Positions 2,701 through 51,454 of a stretch of DNA of 60,591 bases are shown here, one piece after another (position 1 is the first letter of the stretch; each line of letters opens with the position of its first letter). The DNA is from Candidatus Nealsonbacteria bacterium RIFCSPLOWO2_01_FULL_43_32 (GTDB lineage Bacteria; Patescibacteriota; Minisyncoccia; Minisyncoccales; MHMH01), in assembly GCA_001819335.1 (NCBI GenBank), contig MHMH01000006.1, positions 1 through 60,591 on the forward strand, written 5' to 3'. A program made the translations under genes and the position numbers. The notes beneath the pieces are model-generated. The model saw only the letters and a list, made by a program, of their open reading frames with translations, searched no databases and had not been told where the DNA came from.

Positions 2701-3545
2701 TGTATTTTTTGAGCAGCTCTTAATGTGGCGCTGCGGGCCCTCGGGTTTATTCTAAGCTCTAATAGGCTTGGAGTAATCGGTTTTTTTGTTAAGATATGCC
2801 ACGACCCTTGTTTTAAAAAATTCTTAACGATTCTATCTTCTAAAGAATGAAAGGAGATAGTCACGAGCCTCCCGCCGCTTCTTAAGATTTTCAGGGCTTG
2901 GGGCAGGGCCTTCTGTAAATTGTTTAATTCGTCGTTAACCGCTATTCTTAAGGCTTGGAAGGTTCTGGTGGCGGGATGAATGCGCTGCCTGCCCCGGACT
3001 GATTTTTTAATTATCTCTACTAATTGGAGAGTGTGTTTAATGGCTCTGGCTTTTCTCTCTTCAACAATACCTTCAGCAATCTGGGCGCTAAACTTTTCTT
3101 CGCCGTATTCTCTCAAGATTTTCTCGATATCAAACTTTGACCAGTAATTAAGTATTTTCTCTGCGCTCAATTGGTTCTTCAGACTGTATCTCATGTCCAG
3201 GGGCTCTTTTCTCTGAAAGGAGAATCCTCTGCCCGATTGTTCAAGATGCCAGGAAGAATAGCCCAGGTCAAAAAGAATTCCGCTGACTTGATCAAACCTA
3301 TTCTCTCGAACGATCTCTTTCAGGTTAGCAAAGTTGTCGCAGACCAGAATCAAATTATGACTGGCTTTATTTTTTTTGACCAACTCAGTGCTCCAATCAA
3401 TGCAAAGTATTTTTCCCCGAGGCGCAATCTTTTCAAGAATGGCCGAAGCATGTCCGCCCCCGCCGAAAGTGCAATCAATGAAATGCTCGTTGGGTTTGGG
3501 GTCAAGCTCCTGCAAAACTTCTTTTTGTAAAACCGGAATATGCAT
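2697..3545 (-). CDS. rsmH: 16S rRNA (cytosine1402-N4)-methyltransferase
   Basis: N-terminus HIPVL..E......F.D.T.GGGGH is typical of RsmH/MraW. Follows mraZ. Confidence 0.95.
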   Translation of the reverse strand: MHIPVLQKEVLQELDPKPNEHFIDCTFGGGGHASAILEKIAPRGKILCIDWSTELVKKNKASHNLILVCDNFANLKEIVRENRFDQVSGILFDLGYSSWHLEQSGRGFSFQRKEPLDMRYSLKNQLSAEKILNYWSKFDIEKILREYGEEKFSAQIAEGIVEERKARAIKHTLQLVEIIKKSVRGRQRIHPATRTFQALRIAVNDELNNLQKALPQALKILRSGGRLVTISFHSLEDRIVKNFLKQGSWHILTKKPITPSLLELRINPRARSATLRAAQKIQ

Positions 3546-3556
3546 GTCAAATCAAA

Positions 3557-3988
3557 TCAAATACCCATTTCTTTTAAACGTTCGGCAATGTCGCCGACCG
3601 AGCTTTCCGTTCTCTGTTTGTGCTCGGCCCATTTTTCTGAATCCCAGATTTCAATTTTAGTGGAAAGGCCGAGTAAGGTGACGTTTTTCTTTAAAACTGC
3701 GTAATTTTTCAAAGAGTCCGGGATGAGAATTCTGCCTAATTTATCAAGCTCAACGTCCGAGGCTTGAGAAAGCATCACCCGGGCAAAATTTCTCGCATCA
3801 GCTTGAGCGGTCGGCAGGTTGGCTAATTTCTGAGCCAGCTTTCCCCACTCGTCTAAAGTATAAATCACCAAACAATTTTCCAAGCCTTTGGTAATGACTG
3901 CTTTTTCGCCCAAGTCCTTTCTGAATTTGGCCGGGACGGCTAATCTTTTTTTAATATCAATGGTGTGTTGGTATTCGCCTATTAGCAT
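3557..3988 (-). CDS. mraZ: Transcriptional regulator MraZ
   Basis: 143 aa. Duplicated SpoVT/AbrB-like halves (DIKKRLAVPAKFR and DKLGRILIP). First gene of the dcw cluster. Confidence 0.95.
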   Translation of the reverse strand: MLIGEYQHTIDIKKRLAVPAKFRKDLGEKAVITKGLENCLVIYTLDEWGKLAQKLANLPTAQADARNFARVMLSQASDVELDKLGRILIPDSLKNYAVLKKNVTLLGLSTKIEIWDSEKWAEHKQRTESSVGDIAERLKEMGI

Positions 3989-16269: not shown

Positions 16270-16286
16270 GAATAATTACGAAGTAA

Positions 16287-16985
16287 TTATGGGAGTCCGA
16301 CTCCCATATTTTTTAATAACTGCTGGACAGATTTAATATTTTTACTATAGTATTTTAACCAATTCATAAAAAATTCTCGATATTTTTCTGGAGTTTCAAA
16401 GAATCTAGATATAAAATTATTATCTATTAGTGAGGGAAAATTCTTGATACCAAGCCAATCTAAATGGCTTGACCATCGGTACTTATTTTCTAAAAAATCC
16501 ATAGCTCTCACAATCTCTGAATTATTCAGACCTGTTTTTTTCCAATCGGGCTTCCAAAGATCTAAAGGATTAGCGTGAATATAACAAATCAATTGAAGAG
16601 CTTGAGTATCATTAACAACGCGAACTTTTTTATATTTCCCCTGGAACAATACTCCGCTTCTTTTATATTTATTATTGAAAAAATTAGTAAAGCCTACTCC
16701 GAACTTTTTGTGATATTTTGATAAGCCATTATCTCTAATCGGGCATAGAAAAAAATGGTAATGGTTTGGCATTAGATTCCAGCATATTAAGTTTACTAGT
16801 TTCTGGCGTTGTTTTTCCAGAAGAAAAGAAGGCGGAGATTTATCAAACCGATAAGCAATATTAACGACATCATCAACGTCATTGAACTCATACGCGTCAT
16901 GAACAGCTCGAAGATAATCCGTATCTTCTAAAAATATCTTTCTTTTTTCTGTTCCTCGGTTATAAGTATGATAAAATTCTAGCAT
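16287..16985 (-). CDS. REP-associated tyrosine transposase-like (IS200/Y1 HUH) protein, paralog 1
   Basis: HUH motif MPNHYHFF and catalytic-Tyr motif CYIHANPL. Confidence 0.8.
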   Translation of the reverse strand: MLEFYHTYNRGTEKRKIFLEDTDYLRAVHDAYEFNDVDDVVNIAYRFDKSPPSFLLEKQRQKLVNLICWNLMPNHYHFFLCPIRDNGLSKYHKKFGVGFTNFFNNKYKRSGVLFQGKYKKVRVVNDTQALQLICYIHANPLDLWKPDWKKTGLNNSEIVRAMDFLENKYRWSSHLDWLGIKNFPSLIDNNFISRFFETPEKYREFFMNWLKYYSKNIKSVQQLLKNMGVGLP

Positions 16986-17032
16986 TATTTTATTATACTA
17001 AATCATTAGAATTATGGAAGTCCGACTCCCAT
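16289..17032 (-). mobile_element. RAYT/IS200-like unit 1: Y1 transposase gene bracketed by cognate hairpins
   Basis: ATGGGAGTC-C-GACTCCCAT at 16289-16307 and ATGGAAGTC-C-GACTCCCAT at 17014-17032. Confidence 0.7.
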
Positions 17033-17101
17033 AATTACTCCGAAGGAGGTAAGGCATCTCCCCTTATTCCCTCCCAAACGATTTTGTGCTAAGATAAAAA
17101 T

Positions 17102-28222: not shown

Positions 28223-28840
28223 TTACAAATTTAATTTTAAATGAACATGTGATTTCATCTCTTCGGCAATCTCATTAATTGGTCTCTCTCCTCCAATTAT
28301 GTAAACATTTTTAATATGGTTTGGCAAGATAGCATAAGTTTGCCAAACCTTCTCCAGTTTCTGCGTTTCTTCAAAAAGAGTTTGAGCGCTGCCTCTCTTT
28401 TTAATCCTTTCCAGACAAATCTCTGGCCTGACTTTTAAAATAAATGTCAAATCTGGCACTAAAAATGCGCTGTTCAATTCCATGAGCCAGGCCAAATCCA
28501 ATCCATCGGACACGCCGTAGGCAAAAGTAGAGAAAAAATAGCGGTCGGAGATCACGATGTTATTTTGTTGCAGCACCGGAATGATTAAATTTTCCAAGTG
28601 CTCTTTTCTGTCTTGAATGAATAACTCCTGCAAATACACGGGTTCAACCAGTGTATTTTTGTCCAAAACTTGACGAATTTCTTTTCCGGCTTGAGAGTCT
28701 TTGGTCGGTTCTTTGGTTAAAATGACCTTAAACCCTTCTGAAACTAAAAAATCCTTTAAAAGATTGGCTTGCGTTGACTGGCCGGAACCGTCCAATCCCT
28801 CAAACGCAATAAATTTGCCAAGATAAGGATTTTTAATCAT
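28223..28840 (-). CDS. tmk: Thymidylate kinase
   Basis: P-loop FEGLDGSGQSTQ; 205 aa. Confidence 0.9.
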   Translation of the reverse strand: MIKNPYLGKFIAFEGLDGSGQSTQANLLKDFLVSEGFKVILTKEPTKDSQAGKEIRQVLDKNTLVEPVYLQELFIQDRKEHLENLIIPVLQQNNIVISDRYFFSTFAYGVSDGLDLAWLMELNSAFLVPDLTFILKVRPEICLERIKKRGSAQTLFEETQKLEKVWQTYAILPNHIKNVYIIGGERPINEIAEEMKSHVHLKLNL

Positions 28841-37787: not shown

Positions 37788-39193
37788 AATTGTTCAAAAA
37801 TTTCGGCCAGGGCTAAAATTTTATGTTCACTAAATGGTTGACCAATCATCTGCAGACCGACGGGTAGAGCGCCCACTTTACCGCAGGGCAAAGAAAGGGC
37901 GGGCAGACCGGCTAAGTTGACCGAAACCGTGTAAACATCAACCAGATACATGGATAAAGGGTCTTTGATTTTTTCGCCGAGTTTAAATGGCAGTACAGGG
38001 GAAGTCGGAGTTAACAGCACGTCCACTTTCTGGAAAACCTTTTTGAAATCATTGATAATTTGCGTCCTGACTTTCTGCGCCCTCAAATAATAGGCCTCGT
38101 AATAACCGGACGACAAAGCATAGGTACCCAGCATGATTCTCCGTCTGACTTCGGGGCCGAAGCCCTGGCCCCGGGATTTCAGATAAACTTCCATTAGGTC
38201 TTTGCCTAAAGCCGCGTAGCCGTATTTTATCCCATCATAACGAGCCAGATTAGCCGAAGCTTCTGAAGGATTAATCATGTAATAAGCAGGCAGAGCGGCT
38301 TCGGTATGGGGCAAGCTCACTTCAATGAGCTTGGCGCCGGCTTTTTCGTATTTTCGAATCGCTTCTTTGACGAGCCTCTCAATACTCGGGTCAATTCCTT
38401 TGACAAAATACTCCTTGGGCATGCCAATCTTTAAATTTCGAATTTCGAATTTCGAATTTCGAATTTTTGATTCCACCGAAGTGGAATCAAGCGGATCTTG
38501 GCCCGCGATGGCCTCAAATACTATTTTAGCATCTTCCACGGTCTTTGTGATGGGACCAATTTGGTCCAAAGAAGAAGCAAAAGCAATCAAACCATAACGG
38601 GAAACCGCTCCATAAGTGGGCTTTAAGCCCACCACGCCGCAGAAAGAAGCAGGCTGGCGGACAGAACCTCCGGTGTCTGAACCAAGCGCATAGATAGACA
38701 TGTCGGCAGCCACAGCTGCCGCTGAACCACCTGATGTTCCACCGGGTACTCGGGTCAGGTCGTGCGGGTTGCGAGTCGGGCCAAAAGCCGAGTTCTCGGT
38801 AGAGGAACCCATGGCAAACTCATCAAGATTGGTCTTGCCCAGAATAATTGCTCCCTGCTTTTTAAGCTTGGCTACTACTGTAGCATCATAGGGAGCTACA
38901 TAGTTTTCCAGCATCCTGGAACCAGCCGTGCATTTGACGTTTTCAATCAGGATATTATCTTTGATGGCAGCCGAAATCCCAGCCAGCAAAGATATCTCTT
39001 GGCCAGTGGCCAATAGGTCATCTATTTTCTTAGCTTGAGTCAGGGCCGCACTTTCATCAACGCTTAAAAAAGCATGGATTGATTTGTCTTGCTCTTTGAT
39101 TTTATTTAAATGGGCTTGGCAAAGTTCCAGAGCAGAAAATTGTTTTTTCTTCAGCCCCTGATGCGCCTGAGCGATGGTTAATTCGGTTAACAT
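37784..39193 (-). CDS. gatA: Glu-tRNA(Gln) amidotransferase subunit A
   Basis: Amidase signature GGTSGGSAAAVAA and GSDTGGSVRQPA. Confidence 0.95.
   Translation of the reverse strand: MLTELTIAQAHQGLKKKQFSALELCQAHLNKIKEQDKSIHAFLSVDESAALTQAKKIDDLLATGQEISLLAGISAAIKDNILIENVKCTAGSRMLENYVAPYDATVVAKLKKQGAIILGKTNLDEFAMGSSTENSAFGPTRNPHDLTRVPGGTSGGSAAAVAADMSIYALGSDTGGSVRQPASFCGVVGLKPTYGAVSRYGLIAFASSLDQIGPITKTVEDAKIVFEAIAGQDPLDSTSVESKIRNSKFEIRNLKIGMPKEYFVKGIDPSIERLVKEAIRKYEKAGAKLIEVSLPHTEAALPAYYMINPSEASANLARYDGIKYGYAALGKDLMEVYLKSRGQGFGPEVRRRIMLGTYALSSGYYEAYYLRAQKVRTQIINDFKKVFQKVDVLLTPTSPVLPFKLGEKIKDPLSMYLVDVYTVSVNLAGLPALSLPCGKVGALPVGLQMIGQPFSEHKILALAEIFEQL
38434..38468. repeat. Heptanucleotide tandem repeat (AATTTCG)x4 plus a partial unit, inside gatA
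   Basis: Units at 38434, 38441, 38448 and 38455. Translated as IRNSKFEIRNLK. Confidence 0.8.
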
Positions 39194-43456: not shown

Positions 43457-44223
43457 CTATCGGGGTCGAACCCCGATAGCCTACTCTATGGCGACTTTTT
43501 CGAAATCAGCTAATTCTTTTTTGAATTCTAACCAACTATCTACTGCTTCCTTGCAACCTTTCACCCCGCCCATTGTTTCAGCTAAAAACTCTCGGCTGGT
43601 TAAAGACGGAAAATTTTTAACTCCTAAATAATCTGGATAGCTTGACCACCTGTAATCTCTCGCGAAATTAATTACTTTTTTCGCATCTTCAATTCCTCTT
43701 TCCTTCCAACCAGGAAAGATAATGGCCACCGGATTAGTATGAACGTAAACAAAAATTGTGTAAAGTTGTTTGTCGTTCTCGATATGGACCAACCTGTATT
43801 TTCCTTGGAATAGGTGTCCGACTCTTTTGTGTCTCTGATTATAATAGACTCCGTAACCTCCGCCAATCTTTTTCATAAACTGACTGATTCCGCCATCTCT
43901 TATCTGGCGAAGTAATAGGTGAACATGATTAGGCATTAAACAAAAGGCTAGAATCTCTACCAACATCTCCCTAACTCCCCTCTTATAGCTATCGGGGTCG
44001 GACCCCGTTAGTTTTGATTTTTGGAAGAAACGGAAATTAGAAGAAACGGGGCTTGTGTCATTGAACTCAAATAAATCATGAATCATGCGAAAGTAATCTT
44101 TTTCATCACGAAAAAGCTTCAGATTTTCTACTGTCCGAATAACGGTATGATATATTTCTCCATTAACTAACGGCGGTCTTTTGCTTGGCATATTAGCGTA
44201 TTAGCGGGGTCGGACCCCGATAG
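43457..44223 (-). mobile_element. RAYT/IS200-like unit 2 with cognate hairpins (two flanking plus one internal)
   Basis: CTATCGGGGT-CGA-ACCCCGATAG at 43457-79; CGGGGT-CGG-ACCCCG at 44205-23; internal copy at 43989-44011. Confidence 0.7.
43481..44191 (-). CDS. REP-associated tyrosine transposase-like protein, paralog 2
   Basis: HUH motif MPNHVHLL; Tyr motif VYVHTNPV. Confidence 0.8.
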   Translation of the reverse strand: MPSKRPPLVNGEIYHTVIRTVENLKLFRDEKDYFRMIHDLFEFNDTSPVSSNFRFFQKSKLTGSDPDSYKRGVREMLVEILAFCLMPNHVHLLLRQIRDGGISQFMKKIGGGYGVYYNQRHKRVGHLFQGKYRLVHIENDKQLYTIFVYVHTNPVAIIFPGWKERGIEDAKKVINFARDYRWSSYPDYLGVKNFPSLTSREFLAETMGGVKGCKEAVDSWLEFKKELADFEKVAIE

Positions 44224-49768: not shown

Positions 49769-49859
49769 TGTTAAAAAGCTCCTCTTGAACTTTTGAATAT
49801 CTCGGATTTCTCATCTTACTTAATTGATTTCAAAATGTCAATGGCAGACGAAAAACAAA

Positions 49860-50629
49860 TTGATGGATATCCGATATCCATCAATACACATCAATCTAAA
49901 AATAATCTTTTTATCGAATCGGTATTCTTTTCATAATATCTCAGCCAATCTATGAAAAATTCCCGATACCCCGCCGGCCCGCCAAAAAAGTTAATCAAAA
50001 ATTCATTATTACTAATCAATGACGGGAAATTTTTAATGCCGAGGTAGTCTAAATGGCTAGACCACCGGTATTCCTTCTCTAAAAATTTTAAGGCGCCCTG
50101 AATCTCCAAACTAGATAAACCATTCTCTTTCCAGCCGGGCTTCCATAAATCTAGCGGGTTTGAATGGATATAACAAACCAATTGAGCCATCTGGGTGTCA
50201 TCGACAACTTGAACCTTTTTATATTTTCCCTGGAATAATACCCCACTCCTTTTATATTTGGTATTAAAAAAATTGCTGAAACCTATCCCAAGTTTTTGAT
50301 GGAACCTTGGCAGACCGTTCTCAACCTTCGGAGTAGAAAAAAGGTGATAATGATTGGGCATTAAACACCAAACAATAATATCTATTAACTTGTTTCTTGA
50401 TTTTTCCGCAGAAGTTCCATTGATGGATATCCGATTTCCATCAAATCGCCGATTGAGATTAATAACAGCATCAGTGTCGTTAAATTCGTAAAAATCATGT
50501 ACGCACCGCAAATAATCCGTGCCGTCCATAAATATCTTGCGTTTCTCAACCCCTCGATTATAGGTATGATAAAAAATAGATTCCATTAATAAATTATAAC
50601 ACGGATTGATGGATATCCGATATCCATCA
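49860..50629 (-). mobile_element. RAYT/IS200-like unit 3 with cognate hairpins (two flanking plus one internal)
   Basis: TTGATGGATAT-CCG-ATATCCATCAA at 49860-84, 50607-29 and (1 mismatch) 50420-44. Confidence 0.7.
49891..50586 (-). CDS. REP-associated tyrosine transposase-like protein, paralog 3
   Basis: HUH motif MPNHYHLF; Tyr motif CYIHSNPL. Start moved to MESIFYHTYNRG because the upstream track codons are the hairpin. Confidence 0.8.
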   Translation of the reverse strand: MESIFYHTYNRGVEKRKIFMDGTDYLRCVHDFYEFNDTDAVINLNRRFDGNRISINGTSAEKSRNKLIDIIVWCLMPNHYHLFSTPKVENGLPRFHQKLGIGFSNFFNTKYKRSGVLFQGKYKKVQVVDDTQMAQLVCYIHSNPLDLWKPGWKENGLSSLEIQGALKFLEKEYRWSSHLDYLGIKNFPSLISNNEFLINFFGGPAGYREFFIDWLRYYEKNTDSIKRLFLD

Positions 50630-50716
50630 CAATCCATCACATATACGCGAATTGATTTCGAGGCATCGATGGAGTATTATCCAATATAGAGAGATTGAAT
50701 CTCCTAAAATCGTTTT

Positions 50717-51454
50717 ATGACAAAGAAAACAAGGACAATTCTTTTTGGTACCTGCGTTTTTTTGTTCGCTCTGATAACGCCCTCAATCATTCTGTATTCC
50801 CAGGGATACAGAATTGATTTTAATCCTTTGCCCGGCGGAAAAATAATCGTCCAGACCGGCGGCTTGTATTTTAAAGTGCTGCCGGCCGGAGCCGATGTGT
50901 ACCTCAACGCAAAATTCAAAGACAAAACCGCCTTTTTCGGCAACTCCCTGCTGATTGAAAACCTTTTACCCAAAACCTATCAGGTTGAAATAAAAAAACA
51001 AGGTTATCATACCTGGCAAAAAACCTTGGAGGTTAAAGAGGCCCAGGTAACCGAAGCCAAAAACATTATCCTCTTCCCCGCAAAGCCTGATTTCACTCTC
51101 ATCAACCAAGCTATTCCTAAGATAACAGCCAATGCCACCTCCTCGGACAAAAAGAAAGTCATTGAAAAACCCAATGACTATGAAATCTGGGTTTTCTTCC
51201 CGGAGAAGGAAGAAAAGATCTTCTTAACCAGATTCTCGGGAAAAATCAACCGCGTTTTCTGGCTGACCGACGATTATTTGATTTTTAACGTGGGCGATAA
51301 AATAAAAATTGCCGAGATCGACTCTAGAGACACCTTAAACGTAATTGACCTGGTTGAGTTCAACAACCCGGAAATATTTTGGAGTCAAAAAGACAAAAAG
51401 CTATACGTGTTAAGCCTGGGCAACCGCTATCTCTTAGACAACCTGCTCCCCTAA
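50717..51454 (+). CDS. PEGA-domain membrane-anchored protein
   Basis: N-terminal TM helix. LPAGADVYLN...YQVEIKKQGYHTW fits a PEGA domain. Confidence 0.6.
   Translation: MTKKTRTILFGTCVFLFALITPSIILYSQGYRIDFNPLPGGKIIVQTGGLYFKVLPAGADVYLNAKFKDKTAFFGNSLLIENLLPKTYQVEIKKQGYHTWQKTLEVKEAQVTEAKNIILFPAKPDFTLINQAIPKITANATSSDKKKVIEKPNDYEIWVFFPEKEEKIFLTRFSGKINRVFWLTDDYLIFNVGDKIKIAEIDSRDTLNVIDLVEFNNPEIFWSQKDKKLYVLSLGNRYLLDNLLP

Follow-up and report, generated by a model that had tools for sequence, protein, structure and literature searches.

Introduction

The RAYT genes and their cognate REPs, together known as REPtrons, are an established case of vertical inheritance and of co-evolution between an enzyme and its palindromes (Nunvar 2010, PMC2817692; Ton-Hoang 2012, PMC3333891; Bertels 2017, PMC5581495), and these studies, together with Messing 2012 (PMC3479197), are the references against which we set the present locus. 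Here we describe a Y1 HUH gene of the RAYT/TIRYT kind from a 60,591-base stretch (hereafter the window) of a groundwater Patescibacteria genome, in which one and the same palindrome stands upstream of the gene (U), in frame within it (I) and downstream of it (D).

Two subclasses of TnpAY1 enzymes are closest to this arrangement. The direct precedent for in-frame copies is subclass 2.4, for which Quentin et al. (2018, PMC6006769) describe REPs in frame inside tnpA-REP. There the REPs are found in the stretch separating the HuH motif from the Tyr motif (beta3:alphaC), vary in length and sequence, and come from Cyanobacteria and Bacteroidetes; the REPs are GTAG-tagged and of the 'double-foot' form, and the enzymes carry the motifs NH[IFV]H / WQ / YIxNNP (PMC6006769). 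Subclass 2.1, or TIRYT, is characterized in Di Nocera 2013 (PMC3733652) and Quentin 2018 by the motifs NH[YF]H, FQ, Y[IV]H-x-NP and SS, by a length of about 238 aa, and by flanking inverted repeats that can be self-complementary and have few or no dispersed copies. The two papers report neither REP-like hairpins nor an internal copy for subclass 2.1, and do not describe it from Patescibacteria.

Results and discussion

Three copies of one palindrome at a single gene

A pattern search allowing up to 3 mismatches finds the palindrome TTGATGGATAT-CCG-ATATCCATCAA exactly three times in the 60,591 bases, at 49860-49884 (no mismatch), 50420-50444 (one mismatch) and 50606-50630 (one mismatch, at the last base), and none of 100 dinucleotide-preserving shuffles of the window gives any match. 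The three copies, to which no strand is assigned, accompany a gene on the minus strand (49891..50586, 231 aa). D, written in full as ATTGATGGATATC-C-GATATCCATCAAT (49859..49885), lies 5 nt past the stop codon, has 13-nt arms around one central base, and is followed on the gene strand by TTGTTTTTCG. I (50420..50444) is in frame, with a single stem mismatch at 50436, and is translated in its context as F-DGNRISIN-G, so that an earlier note's description of a one-mismatch in-frame copy at 50420-44 is confirmed, the copy reading DGNRISIN. U (50606..50630) pairs perfectly over 50607-50629, its centre lying ~32 nt before the ATG. The same note had given both flanks perfect 11-bp stems, which is accurate for 49860-84 but not for 50607-50629, where the stem is 10 bp. 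Adjoining U is an extra partial arm, ATCCATCACA (50632..50641, no strand), in tandem with 50622-31, and comparable extra arm copies adjoin U, I and D in many related loci. Folded as single-stranded DNA, the two flank copies reach -9.5 and -10.1 kcal/mol (z -5.7 and -4.1), far beyond shuffles, and the mismatched internal copy folds weakly (-6.2 kcal/mol, z -1.9).

The internal copy is not an assembly chimera, because Logan contigs from independent public groundwater metagenome runs span both the internal and the upstream copies with zero differences (X8 50207-50714; X1 50345-50900). In a further run, X3, the majority variant 50436 T>A turns the internal copy into a perfect palindrome (N to Y). 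The two findings that the earlier note had named as fatal to the internal copy, absence from close homologues and a chimeric assembly, thus both fail: the copy is present in most loci of at least 59% identity, and contigs from independent runs span it.

The start of the gene is MESIFYHTYNRG. A 249-aa open reading frame (ORF) beginning with GTG (49891-50640, minus strand) reads through the upstream palindrome, and all homologues start at the ATG at 50586 (MESIFYH...), with TATAAT 6 nt upstream; the shorter start that had been proposed for this gene is therefore upheld by every homologue, and an annotation with the long GTG ORF is wrong. The protein carries the HUH motif NHYH at residues 78-81, the catalytic Tyr139 in CYIHSNP, and RWSSH in a C-terminal extension. 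Across 119 aligned homologues N78, H79 and H81 are invariant, and Y139, which falls in a predicted helix (130-142), is at least 90% conserved. Judged against Table 1 of PMC6006769, the tyrosine motif is of the class-2 form Y-x3-NP (YIHSNP here, YVHTNP in the second of two paralogues in the window). These paralogues lie at 16287-16985 (paralogue 1, 64% identical) and 43481-44191 (paralogue 2, 40% identical), each with a different palindrome. The Pfam family PF01797 (Y1_Tnp) matches our protein at 24.4 bits against a gathering threshold of 23, paralogue 2 at 43.3, and paralogue 1 at 19.9, under the cut-off; NCBIfam NF047646 (REP_Tyr_transpos) gives 37.9 bits, under its equivalog cut-off of 80. 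An AlphaFold model (pLDDT 87) has as its top Foldseek match 4er8, the E. coli TnpA-REP bound to a REP hairpin (E 6e-5), followed by the hairpin-bound TnpA proteins of ISDra2 and IS608. The label RAYT-like that the gene had been given from its letters thus holds for fold and motifs (NHYH, Y-x3-NP, a Y1_Tnp match just above cut-off, and 4er8 as best structure).

The C-terminal extension, ~85 aa, is helical in the model and has no PDB match of its own; a DnaA_C or helix-turn-helix (HTH) domain was considered here and dropped, as a Pfam search with the C-terminal 87 aa returned no match at E up to 10. The internal palindrome codes residues 49-56, between helix 44-49 and strand 68-76 and ahead of the HUH strand, and residues 50-61 are the sole segment of the model with pLDDT <50. 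The internal copy thus codes a low-confidence, probably disordered loop, whose length varies on both sides of the palindrome. The protein as a whole is under strong purifying selection, with a ratio of non-synonymous to synonymous substitution (dN/dS) of 0.08-0.10 against syntenic orthologues and of 0.13 for paralogue 1 against its orthologue L006. Its homologues number 1,267 in a 90% cluster database, where the named ones are Patescibacteria and mostly Nealsonbacteria, and a profile search recovers 569 clusters at 50% identity (E <=1e-30).

The three-site layout across the family

We fetched related loci from GTDB genomes (17) and from metagenomes (80). Nearly every one has a U, a single palindrome centred about 20-45 nt before the ATG, and nearly every one has a D, mostly no more than ~15 nt past the stop codon; in some loci it overlaps that codon, and in a few it is up to ~55 nt away. 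The internal copy, between an EFND motif and NHYH, occurs in most loci of at least 59% identity and in some distant ones (L013, L083, L092, L096, L097). Among the 22 distinct loci with all three copies, centred 21-mers differ within a locus by medians of 0.5 (I-U), 1 (I-D) and 0 (U-D) bases, against a between-locus median of 10 differences per 21-mer, and none of 10,000 re-pairings reaches the observed within-locus likeness.

The internal copies are themselves well paired. In 25 distinct copies 92.7% of stem cells pair, against 33-48% in slid registers, and both-sided changes amount to 75 cells against 20.5 in shuffles, a count that leans toward structure since the set was pre-selected and centred as palindromes. 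This covariation is visible in the peptides, for instance DGYPISI, NGSPTPI and DGSSTAI, which derive from GGA/TCC, GGG/CCC and GGC/GCC: the pairing of these triplets in the DNA makes Gly and Ser, Gly and Pro, and Gly and Ala covary in the protein. This is a clear case of nucleic-acid pairing dictating a protein segment, and, for annotation, the odd 'xG-x-[PRST]-x-[SPA]-I' loops of these proteins arise from the translation of a palindrome. Among the closest cluster representatives, 102 of 120 have a loop heptapeptide compatible with reverse complementarity, a 17-fold excess over the rest of the protein; on 150 distant representatives the same test gives only 2.2-fold, with a background too high to trace the internal palindrome deeper into the family.

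The codon phase of the internal copy bears on its origin. In 39/39 main-clade loci the palindrome is centred on the second codon position; paralogue 2 and L013 have it centred on the third, and L083 on the first. For the main clade the constant phase is consistent with a single origin of the internal copy followed by conversion; for paralogue 2, L013 and L083, a separate gain, or else frame drift within the loop, is possible. Of the two explanations that had been offered for the shared arrangement, independent origin and co-evolution, the data show co-evolution for the main clade, where the stem sequence alters jointly at the three sites even among syntenic orthologues; paralogue 2, L013 and L083 may have gained theirs independently.

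Palindromes that change together at a locus that stays in place

The locus is syntenic with L001, L021, L007, L003, L002, L045, L056 and others, with both flanking regions at 65-78% nucleotide identity, and we conclude from the syntenic flanks that the unit is vertically inherited and has not moved on the sampled time scale. Within this orthologous lineage the palindrome has nonetheless changed: it is of the type GGATATC here, GGACGTC/TGACGTC in L007 and L021, GGAGATC in L002, GAAGTC in L045 and GGAGTC in L056, and the type switches jointly at U, D and, where present, I. Between our gene and that of L003 the synonymous sites are saturated (proportion of synonymous differences, pS, 0.75), and the internal 21-mer is identical. 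In both L003 and L010 the same stem mismatch occurs in all three copies, two of which share one orientation while the third is their exact reverse complement, and L021, L047 and L056 have hybrid internal copies in which the right arm is of the new flank type and the left arm of the older type. Together with the extra arm copies, these sequences point to copying between sites in either orientation, and independent selection for stem stability at each site does not fit them. Palindrome type also tracks phylogeny (pairs with the same triplet are 76% identical, against 66%), so that any association of protein residues with the variable stem triplet would be confounded, and a search for such specificity residues was dropped.

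A conserved skeleton and a free loop orientation

Beneath this turnover a skeleton is retained. In the main clade the form G(-6)-N3-T(-2)-NNN-A(+2)-N3-C(+6) is kept in 29/29 U, 25/25 I and 28-29/29 D copies, and stem positions -5 to -3 with their partners vary freely while complementarity is kept; by eye, the same skeleton is found in paralogue 2 and in a distant clade (CCGACTTGCGAAGTCGG). As the skeleton is invariant alike in coding and non-coding copies, it is a constraint at the level of DNA and not of coding. The central base or triplet flips its orientation between sites and between loci (CCG/CGG, ACG/CGT, GTTGAAC/GTTCAAC). Only one of 21 unpaired internal-stem cells is G-U, and thus there is no sign of RNA wobble tolerance.

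Promoter and expression signals

A predicted extended -10 element, TGTTATAAT, lies on the minus strand at 50593..50601 and ends 6 nt before the ATG. Of 49 distinct homologue upstream regions, 24 have a TATAAT-like hexamer, often preceded by TG, at a distance of exactly 6 nt from the ATG. By eye, no Shine-Dalgarno sequence is evident at the three window genes, and a generic sigma-70 scan, which needs a -35 hexamer, does not list the extended -10 at 50593-50601. Going by this anatomy, mRNAs of family members in Patescibacteria would be predicted to be leaderless; none of the RNA runs contains this gene.

The U palindrome covers the -35/spacer region of the predicted promoter, and in L087, L090, L094 and L095, where TTGACT and TATAAT stand 18 nt apart, the palindrome takes up this spacer. 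Because U would lie outside the predicted transcript, any function shared by the three copies would act on DNA. D in the window is followed by a T-run and has a terminator-like score; a general role of D as a terminator was dropped, since a T-run follows D in just 4/48 loci.

Paralogues, neighbouring hairpins and strain variation

The two paralogues in the window repeat the layout with palindromes of their own. Paralogue 2 (43457..44223, minus strand; ORF 43481-44191) has the palindrome CTATCGGGGTC[CG]GACCCCGATAG as D at 43457-79, as I at 43989-44011 (LTGSDPDS) and as U at 44201-23, and the palindrome search thus agrees with the earlier suggestion that the flank/internal/flank layout is common to this paralogue and our gene with a different palindrome in each. 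Paralogue 1 (16285..17036, minus strand; ORF 16287-16985) has AATTATGGGAGTCCGACTCCCATA as D at 16285-16311 and as U at 17010-17036, and its internal copy is decayed (DKSPPSF). A TATAAT-like hexamer is also found at window 16992-16997. A further pair occurs in L002, where a second, paralogue-2-like Y1 gene (1102-1842, within 1064-1863) sits 1.1 kb from the orthologue of our gene and has its own palindrome, AAAATGTCATAGGTGACACCTATGACATTTT, on both flanks, with part of a further copy in frame (SIGDTYDIF). As L002 shows, several private palindrome sets can be close neighbours.

Solitary copies are scarce. For all three palindrome types the count in the 60-kb window is 0; the search for solitary copies of our palindrome that had been recommended, run at up to 4 mismatches, finds no extra copy of it and none of either paralogue's palindrome elsewhere in the window. 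One extra context for this gene's palindrome occurs, in runs X3 and X5. In L006 (3678-3856; metagenome-assembled genome CAYYJV01), the syntenic orthologue of paralogue 1, a solitary palindrome of our gene's type, TGATGGATATCCGATATCCATCA, lies past that gene's own D; next come three partial right arms in tandem and, after them, a hairpin of a third type, AAACAGAGGTTGCGGGTCGAACGCAACCTCTGTTT. This array is a BIME-like cluster of different palindrome families. REPIN-like doublets, in which two inverted family-type hairpins surround GCTCAAATTTGAGAG, occur in L034 (5254-5307), L039 (5401-5444) and L045 (1284-1331); some such doublets are found at a distance of 1-3 kb from the Y1 gene, and others make up the D site itself (L013, L039, L045, L055). 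In L090 extra hairpin copies flank an unrelated, winged-helix-like ORF of 218 aa. By their distribution, the palindromes can apparently spread, at low density.

In a distant clade (L078-L081, L090 at 3107-3147 and 3800-3840, L093, L076) the palindrome is CCTGTGGATAA-CGAC...GTCG-TTATCCACAGG, whose outer stems form an inverted pair of perfect DnaA boxes (TTATCCACA).

Two other palindromes in the window stand apart from the Y1 genes. At 28632-28658, AAATACACGGGTTCAACCAGTGTATTT has a 10/11 stem with the family-like centre GTTCAAC and lies in frame in a thymidylate kinase ORF (28223-28840, minus strand), where it is read as KNTLVEPVYL. No Y1 gene is nearby, and this may be a fourth hairpin type, present as a solitary copy in frame. 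The other, TTCGAATTTCGAATTTCGAATTTCGAA at 38437-38463, repeats a palindromic 8-mer in tandem and has no relation to the Y1 genes.

Strains also differ beside the locus. A weak palindrome, GAGATTGAATCTC, lies at window 50681-50693, ~55 nt beyond U, and a contig of run X4 ends at 50687, where another strain diverges into GGGGAGGTCCGACCTCCC, a different family-type hairpin, which suggests strain-level hairpin turnover beside the locus. Contigs of run X3 contain the joints 49843>50787, 50371>50552 and 50370>50476, which skip 943, 180 and 105 nt; these have 21-36 nt of support on one side, at unequal palindrome positions, and were not used as evidence, as they could reflect other strains or paralogues or real rearrangements.

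What maintains the three sites

The reading that we prefer, and to which we would give about an even chance, is that the palindromes serve the enzyme as DNA sites of its own, that copying homogenises them, that U is autoregulatory, and that the gene is a domesticated one of the RAYT/TIRYT kind. On this reading, which draws on sequence anatomy, the gene would be one of three diverged paralogues of a Patescibacteria-wide, domesticated and vertically inherited Y1 HUH family, and the palindromes would be its recognition sites, functional as DNA rather than as RNA. The protein would read the conserved skeleton, with the variable triplet serving as a private address, and the three sites would be kept identical by copying between them in either orientation, either through enzyme-mediated cleavage and strand transfer or through template switching or gene conversion between palindromes. 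By binding at U the enzyme would repress transcription of its own gene, and I would be an extra cognate site, tolerated in a permissive surface loop and dispensable in some lineages.

Several points weigh against this proposal. Its mechanism is inferred from anatomy throughout, and the promoter is a prediction only. The loop centre flips freely, which gives no sign of the strand-specific recognition of hairpins that IS200/IS605 elements have. Both TnpA-REP and IS608 TnpA bind single-stranded hairpins, and to our knowledge no known relative (TnpA-REP, IS608 TnpA) acts as a repressor. A phased DNA loop between sites had to be dropped, the U-to-I spacings of 181-253 nt being without helical periodicity. 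The internal site has decayed in the lineage of paralogue 1 (W1, L006, L033), and most of the clade L072-L095 lacks it (L083 and L092 have it), so that it is dispensable. Finally, passive gene conversion with no protein role could keep the copies identical.

This last point is close to the main rival, which we consider credible if somewhat unlikely: a REP-like palindrome would have been inserted once or a few times in the sole permissive loop of the protein and kept like its flanking copies by biased conversion or template switching, so that only U and D matter and the internal copy is a tolerated passenger. The repeated decay or loss of the internal copy while the gene is kept (W1, L006, L033; most of L072-L095), the existence of hybrid, half-converted internal copies, the position of the peptide in a low-confidence loop, and the difference in codon phase of the palindrome centre between clades are all as such a history would have it, and in-frame REPs that loops tolerate have been described both for TnpA-REP subclass 2.4 and for genes unrelated to it (PMC6006769, PMC3733652). 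It accounts less well for the near-perfect, flank-matched internal copy that most loci keep in a clade with saturated synonymous sites, and for the retention by that copy of the invariant skeleton of the non-coding copies; moreover, it needs very efficient conversion, without selection, between 25-bp repeats 190-550 bp apart.

A bolder extension of the preferred reading, which we think unlikely, is a self-addressing module, in which the HUH enzyme would read the skeleton and actively copy a private 3-nt 'address' among the promoter operator, the coding site and the third site. If true, the paralogues in one small genome would stay mutually orthogonal, and a gene would be rewriting its own regulatory and coding DNA. 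In a related variant, recombination among U, I and D would yield programmed inversion or deletion and thereby an on/off switch for the gene.

It is quite improbable that the unit is an active element of the IS200/IS605 type, moving by peel-and-paste transposition with U and D as the hairpins of its left and right ends and I as an alternative internal end. The TnpA-type fold with its HUH/Tyr chemistry and the hairpins at both ends of a ~770-bp unit would suit such an element, as would the solitary or clustered family-type hairpins in L006, L090, L034, L039 and L045 and the extra context in X3 and X5. Synteny, however, is conserved although flanking genes are just 65-78% identical, and the three window copies are paralogues of 40-64% identity and not recent copies. 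The tyrosine motif is Y-x3-NP (class 2) and not the Y-x3-Q of IS200 (PMC6006769), and loop orientation differs between the two ends. The sole joint resembling an empty site (49843 to 50787) is supported on one side by 21 nt, and the stretch that it skips includes part of the neighbouring gene. Carriage by phages was also considered and dropped, as no relatives occur on IMG/VR viral contigs, which likewise speaks against an active element.

We regard as very improbable a role in RNA, whereby the I and D hairpins would act in the mRNA through ribosome pausing, RNase processing, termination or stabilisation. Both would be transcribed, and D in the window has its T-run and terminator-like score, but U is upstream of the predicted transcription start and yet identical to I and D, G-U is not enriched among the mismatches (1/21), a T-run follows D in so few loci (4/48), the loop flips would alter the RNA loop, and Rfam gives no match. 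Chance likeness or an assembly artefact is practically negligible, for although De Bruijn contigs do break at palindromes, 0/100 shuffles match, independent runs span the internal copy, and the layout recurs in dozens of unrelated assemblies.

The host role of RAYT/TIRYT enzymes is an old open question. What the present family, large and from an uncultivated lineage, adds is that its presumed DNA sites are few, private, concertedly evolving, and placed at the gene's own promoter, in its reading frame and at its 3' end. At ~0.8 kb the unit is a compact test system for palindrome recognition by Y1 HUH enzymes, for self-regulation, and for the homogenisation of short palindromes.

Comparison with known systems

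The likeness to REPtrons is extensive, and includes the Y1 HUH fold with Y-x3-NP, a palindrome of the gene's own on both flanks, a private palindrome family for each paralogue, vertical inheritance at a fixed locus, purifying selection, and co-evolution of gene and palindrome. Unlike in REPtrons, no abundant dispersed REPs are seen here (0 solitary in 60 kb, few in related contigs); the present family has a long helical C-terminal domain, a regular in-frame third copy and a U that lies on a predicted promoter; and this protein falls under the NCBIfam REP_Tyr_transpos cut-off (37.9 vs 80). The 5' GT[AG]G foot of the REP type is absent, the feet here being ATTGATGG, AATTATGG and AACTATCG.

With subclass 2.4, as presented in PMC6006769, the locus shares a cognate palindrome inside the enzyme's own gene, an intact frame, and a peripheral, variable region as the place of insertion. 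It differs from what is described there in that the copy stands before HuH (alphaA:beta2) and keeps a constant codon phase in the main clade, and in that the motifs are NHYH / FQ (LFQGKY) / YIHSNP. In that paper we found no report of co-variation between internal and flanking copies or of overlap with a promoter.

By its motifs the family appears to resemble subclass 2.1 most. By eye, the likeness covers the motif pattern, the SS after the core, a C-terminal domain, a length of about 230-240 aa, and inverted repeats flanking the gene, with few dispersed copies in the sequences scanned; of the motifs given for subclass 2.1 our 231-aa protein has all except that Ser/Ala/Thr replaces Leu in YIH-L-NP. 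The terminal inverted repeat consensus GGGGWSAS of subclass 2.1 is absent from the palindromes here, and its C-terminal HTH (Bac_DnaA_C, HTH_23, HTH_28) is undetected in this family (Pfam, E up to 10).

Elements of the IS200/IS605 family such as IS608 and ISDra2 are similar in fold, catalytic motifs, subterminal hairpins and a unit of about 0.7-0.8 kb. In contrast to these, the element here is neither multicopy nor mobile on the sampled time scale, has Y-x3-NP instead of Y-x3-Q, and carries near-perfect palindromes of unfixed loop orientation in place of strand-specific imperfect hairpins.

A likeness of another kind is to the auxiliary operators that lie in coding sequence, such as lac O2 in lacZ and gal OI in galE, in that a regulator's palindromic site occurs at a promoter and again within the transcribed coding region. 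Those operators are sites of HTH repressors, which act on other genes through phased DNA looping, whereas here a presumed HUH binder would have unphased sites on its own gene.

In the literature searched, with most subscription journals outside its coverage, we found no description of the three-site layout or of this Patescibacteria family. Relative to that literature, what is new is the conserved, concertedly evolving three-site layout as a trait of a large Patescibacteria family, together with the position of U on a predicted promoter and of the internal copy at a different place in the protein from that of the precedent.

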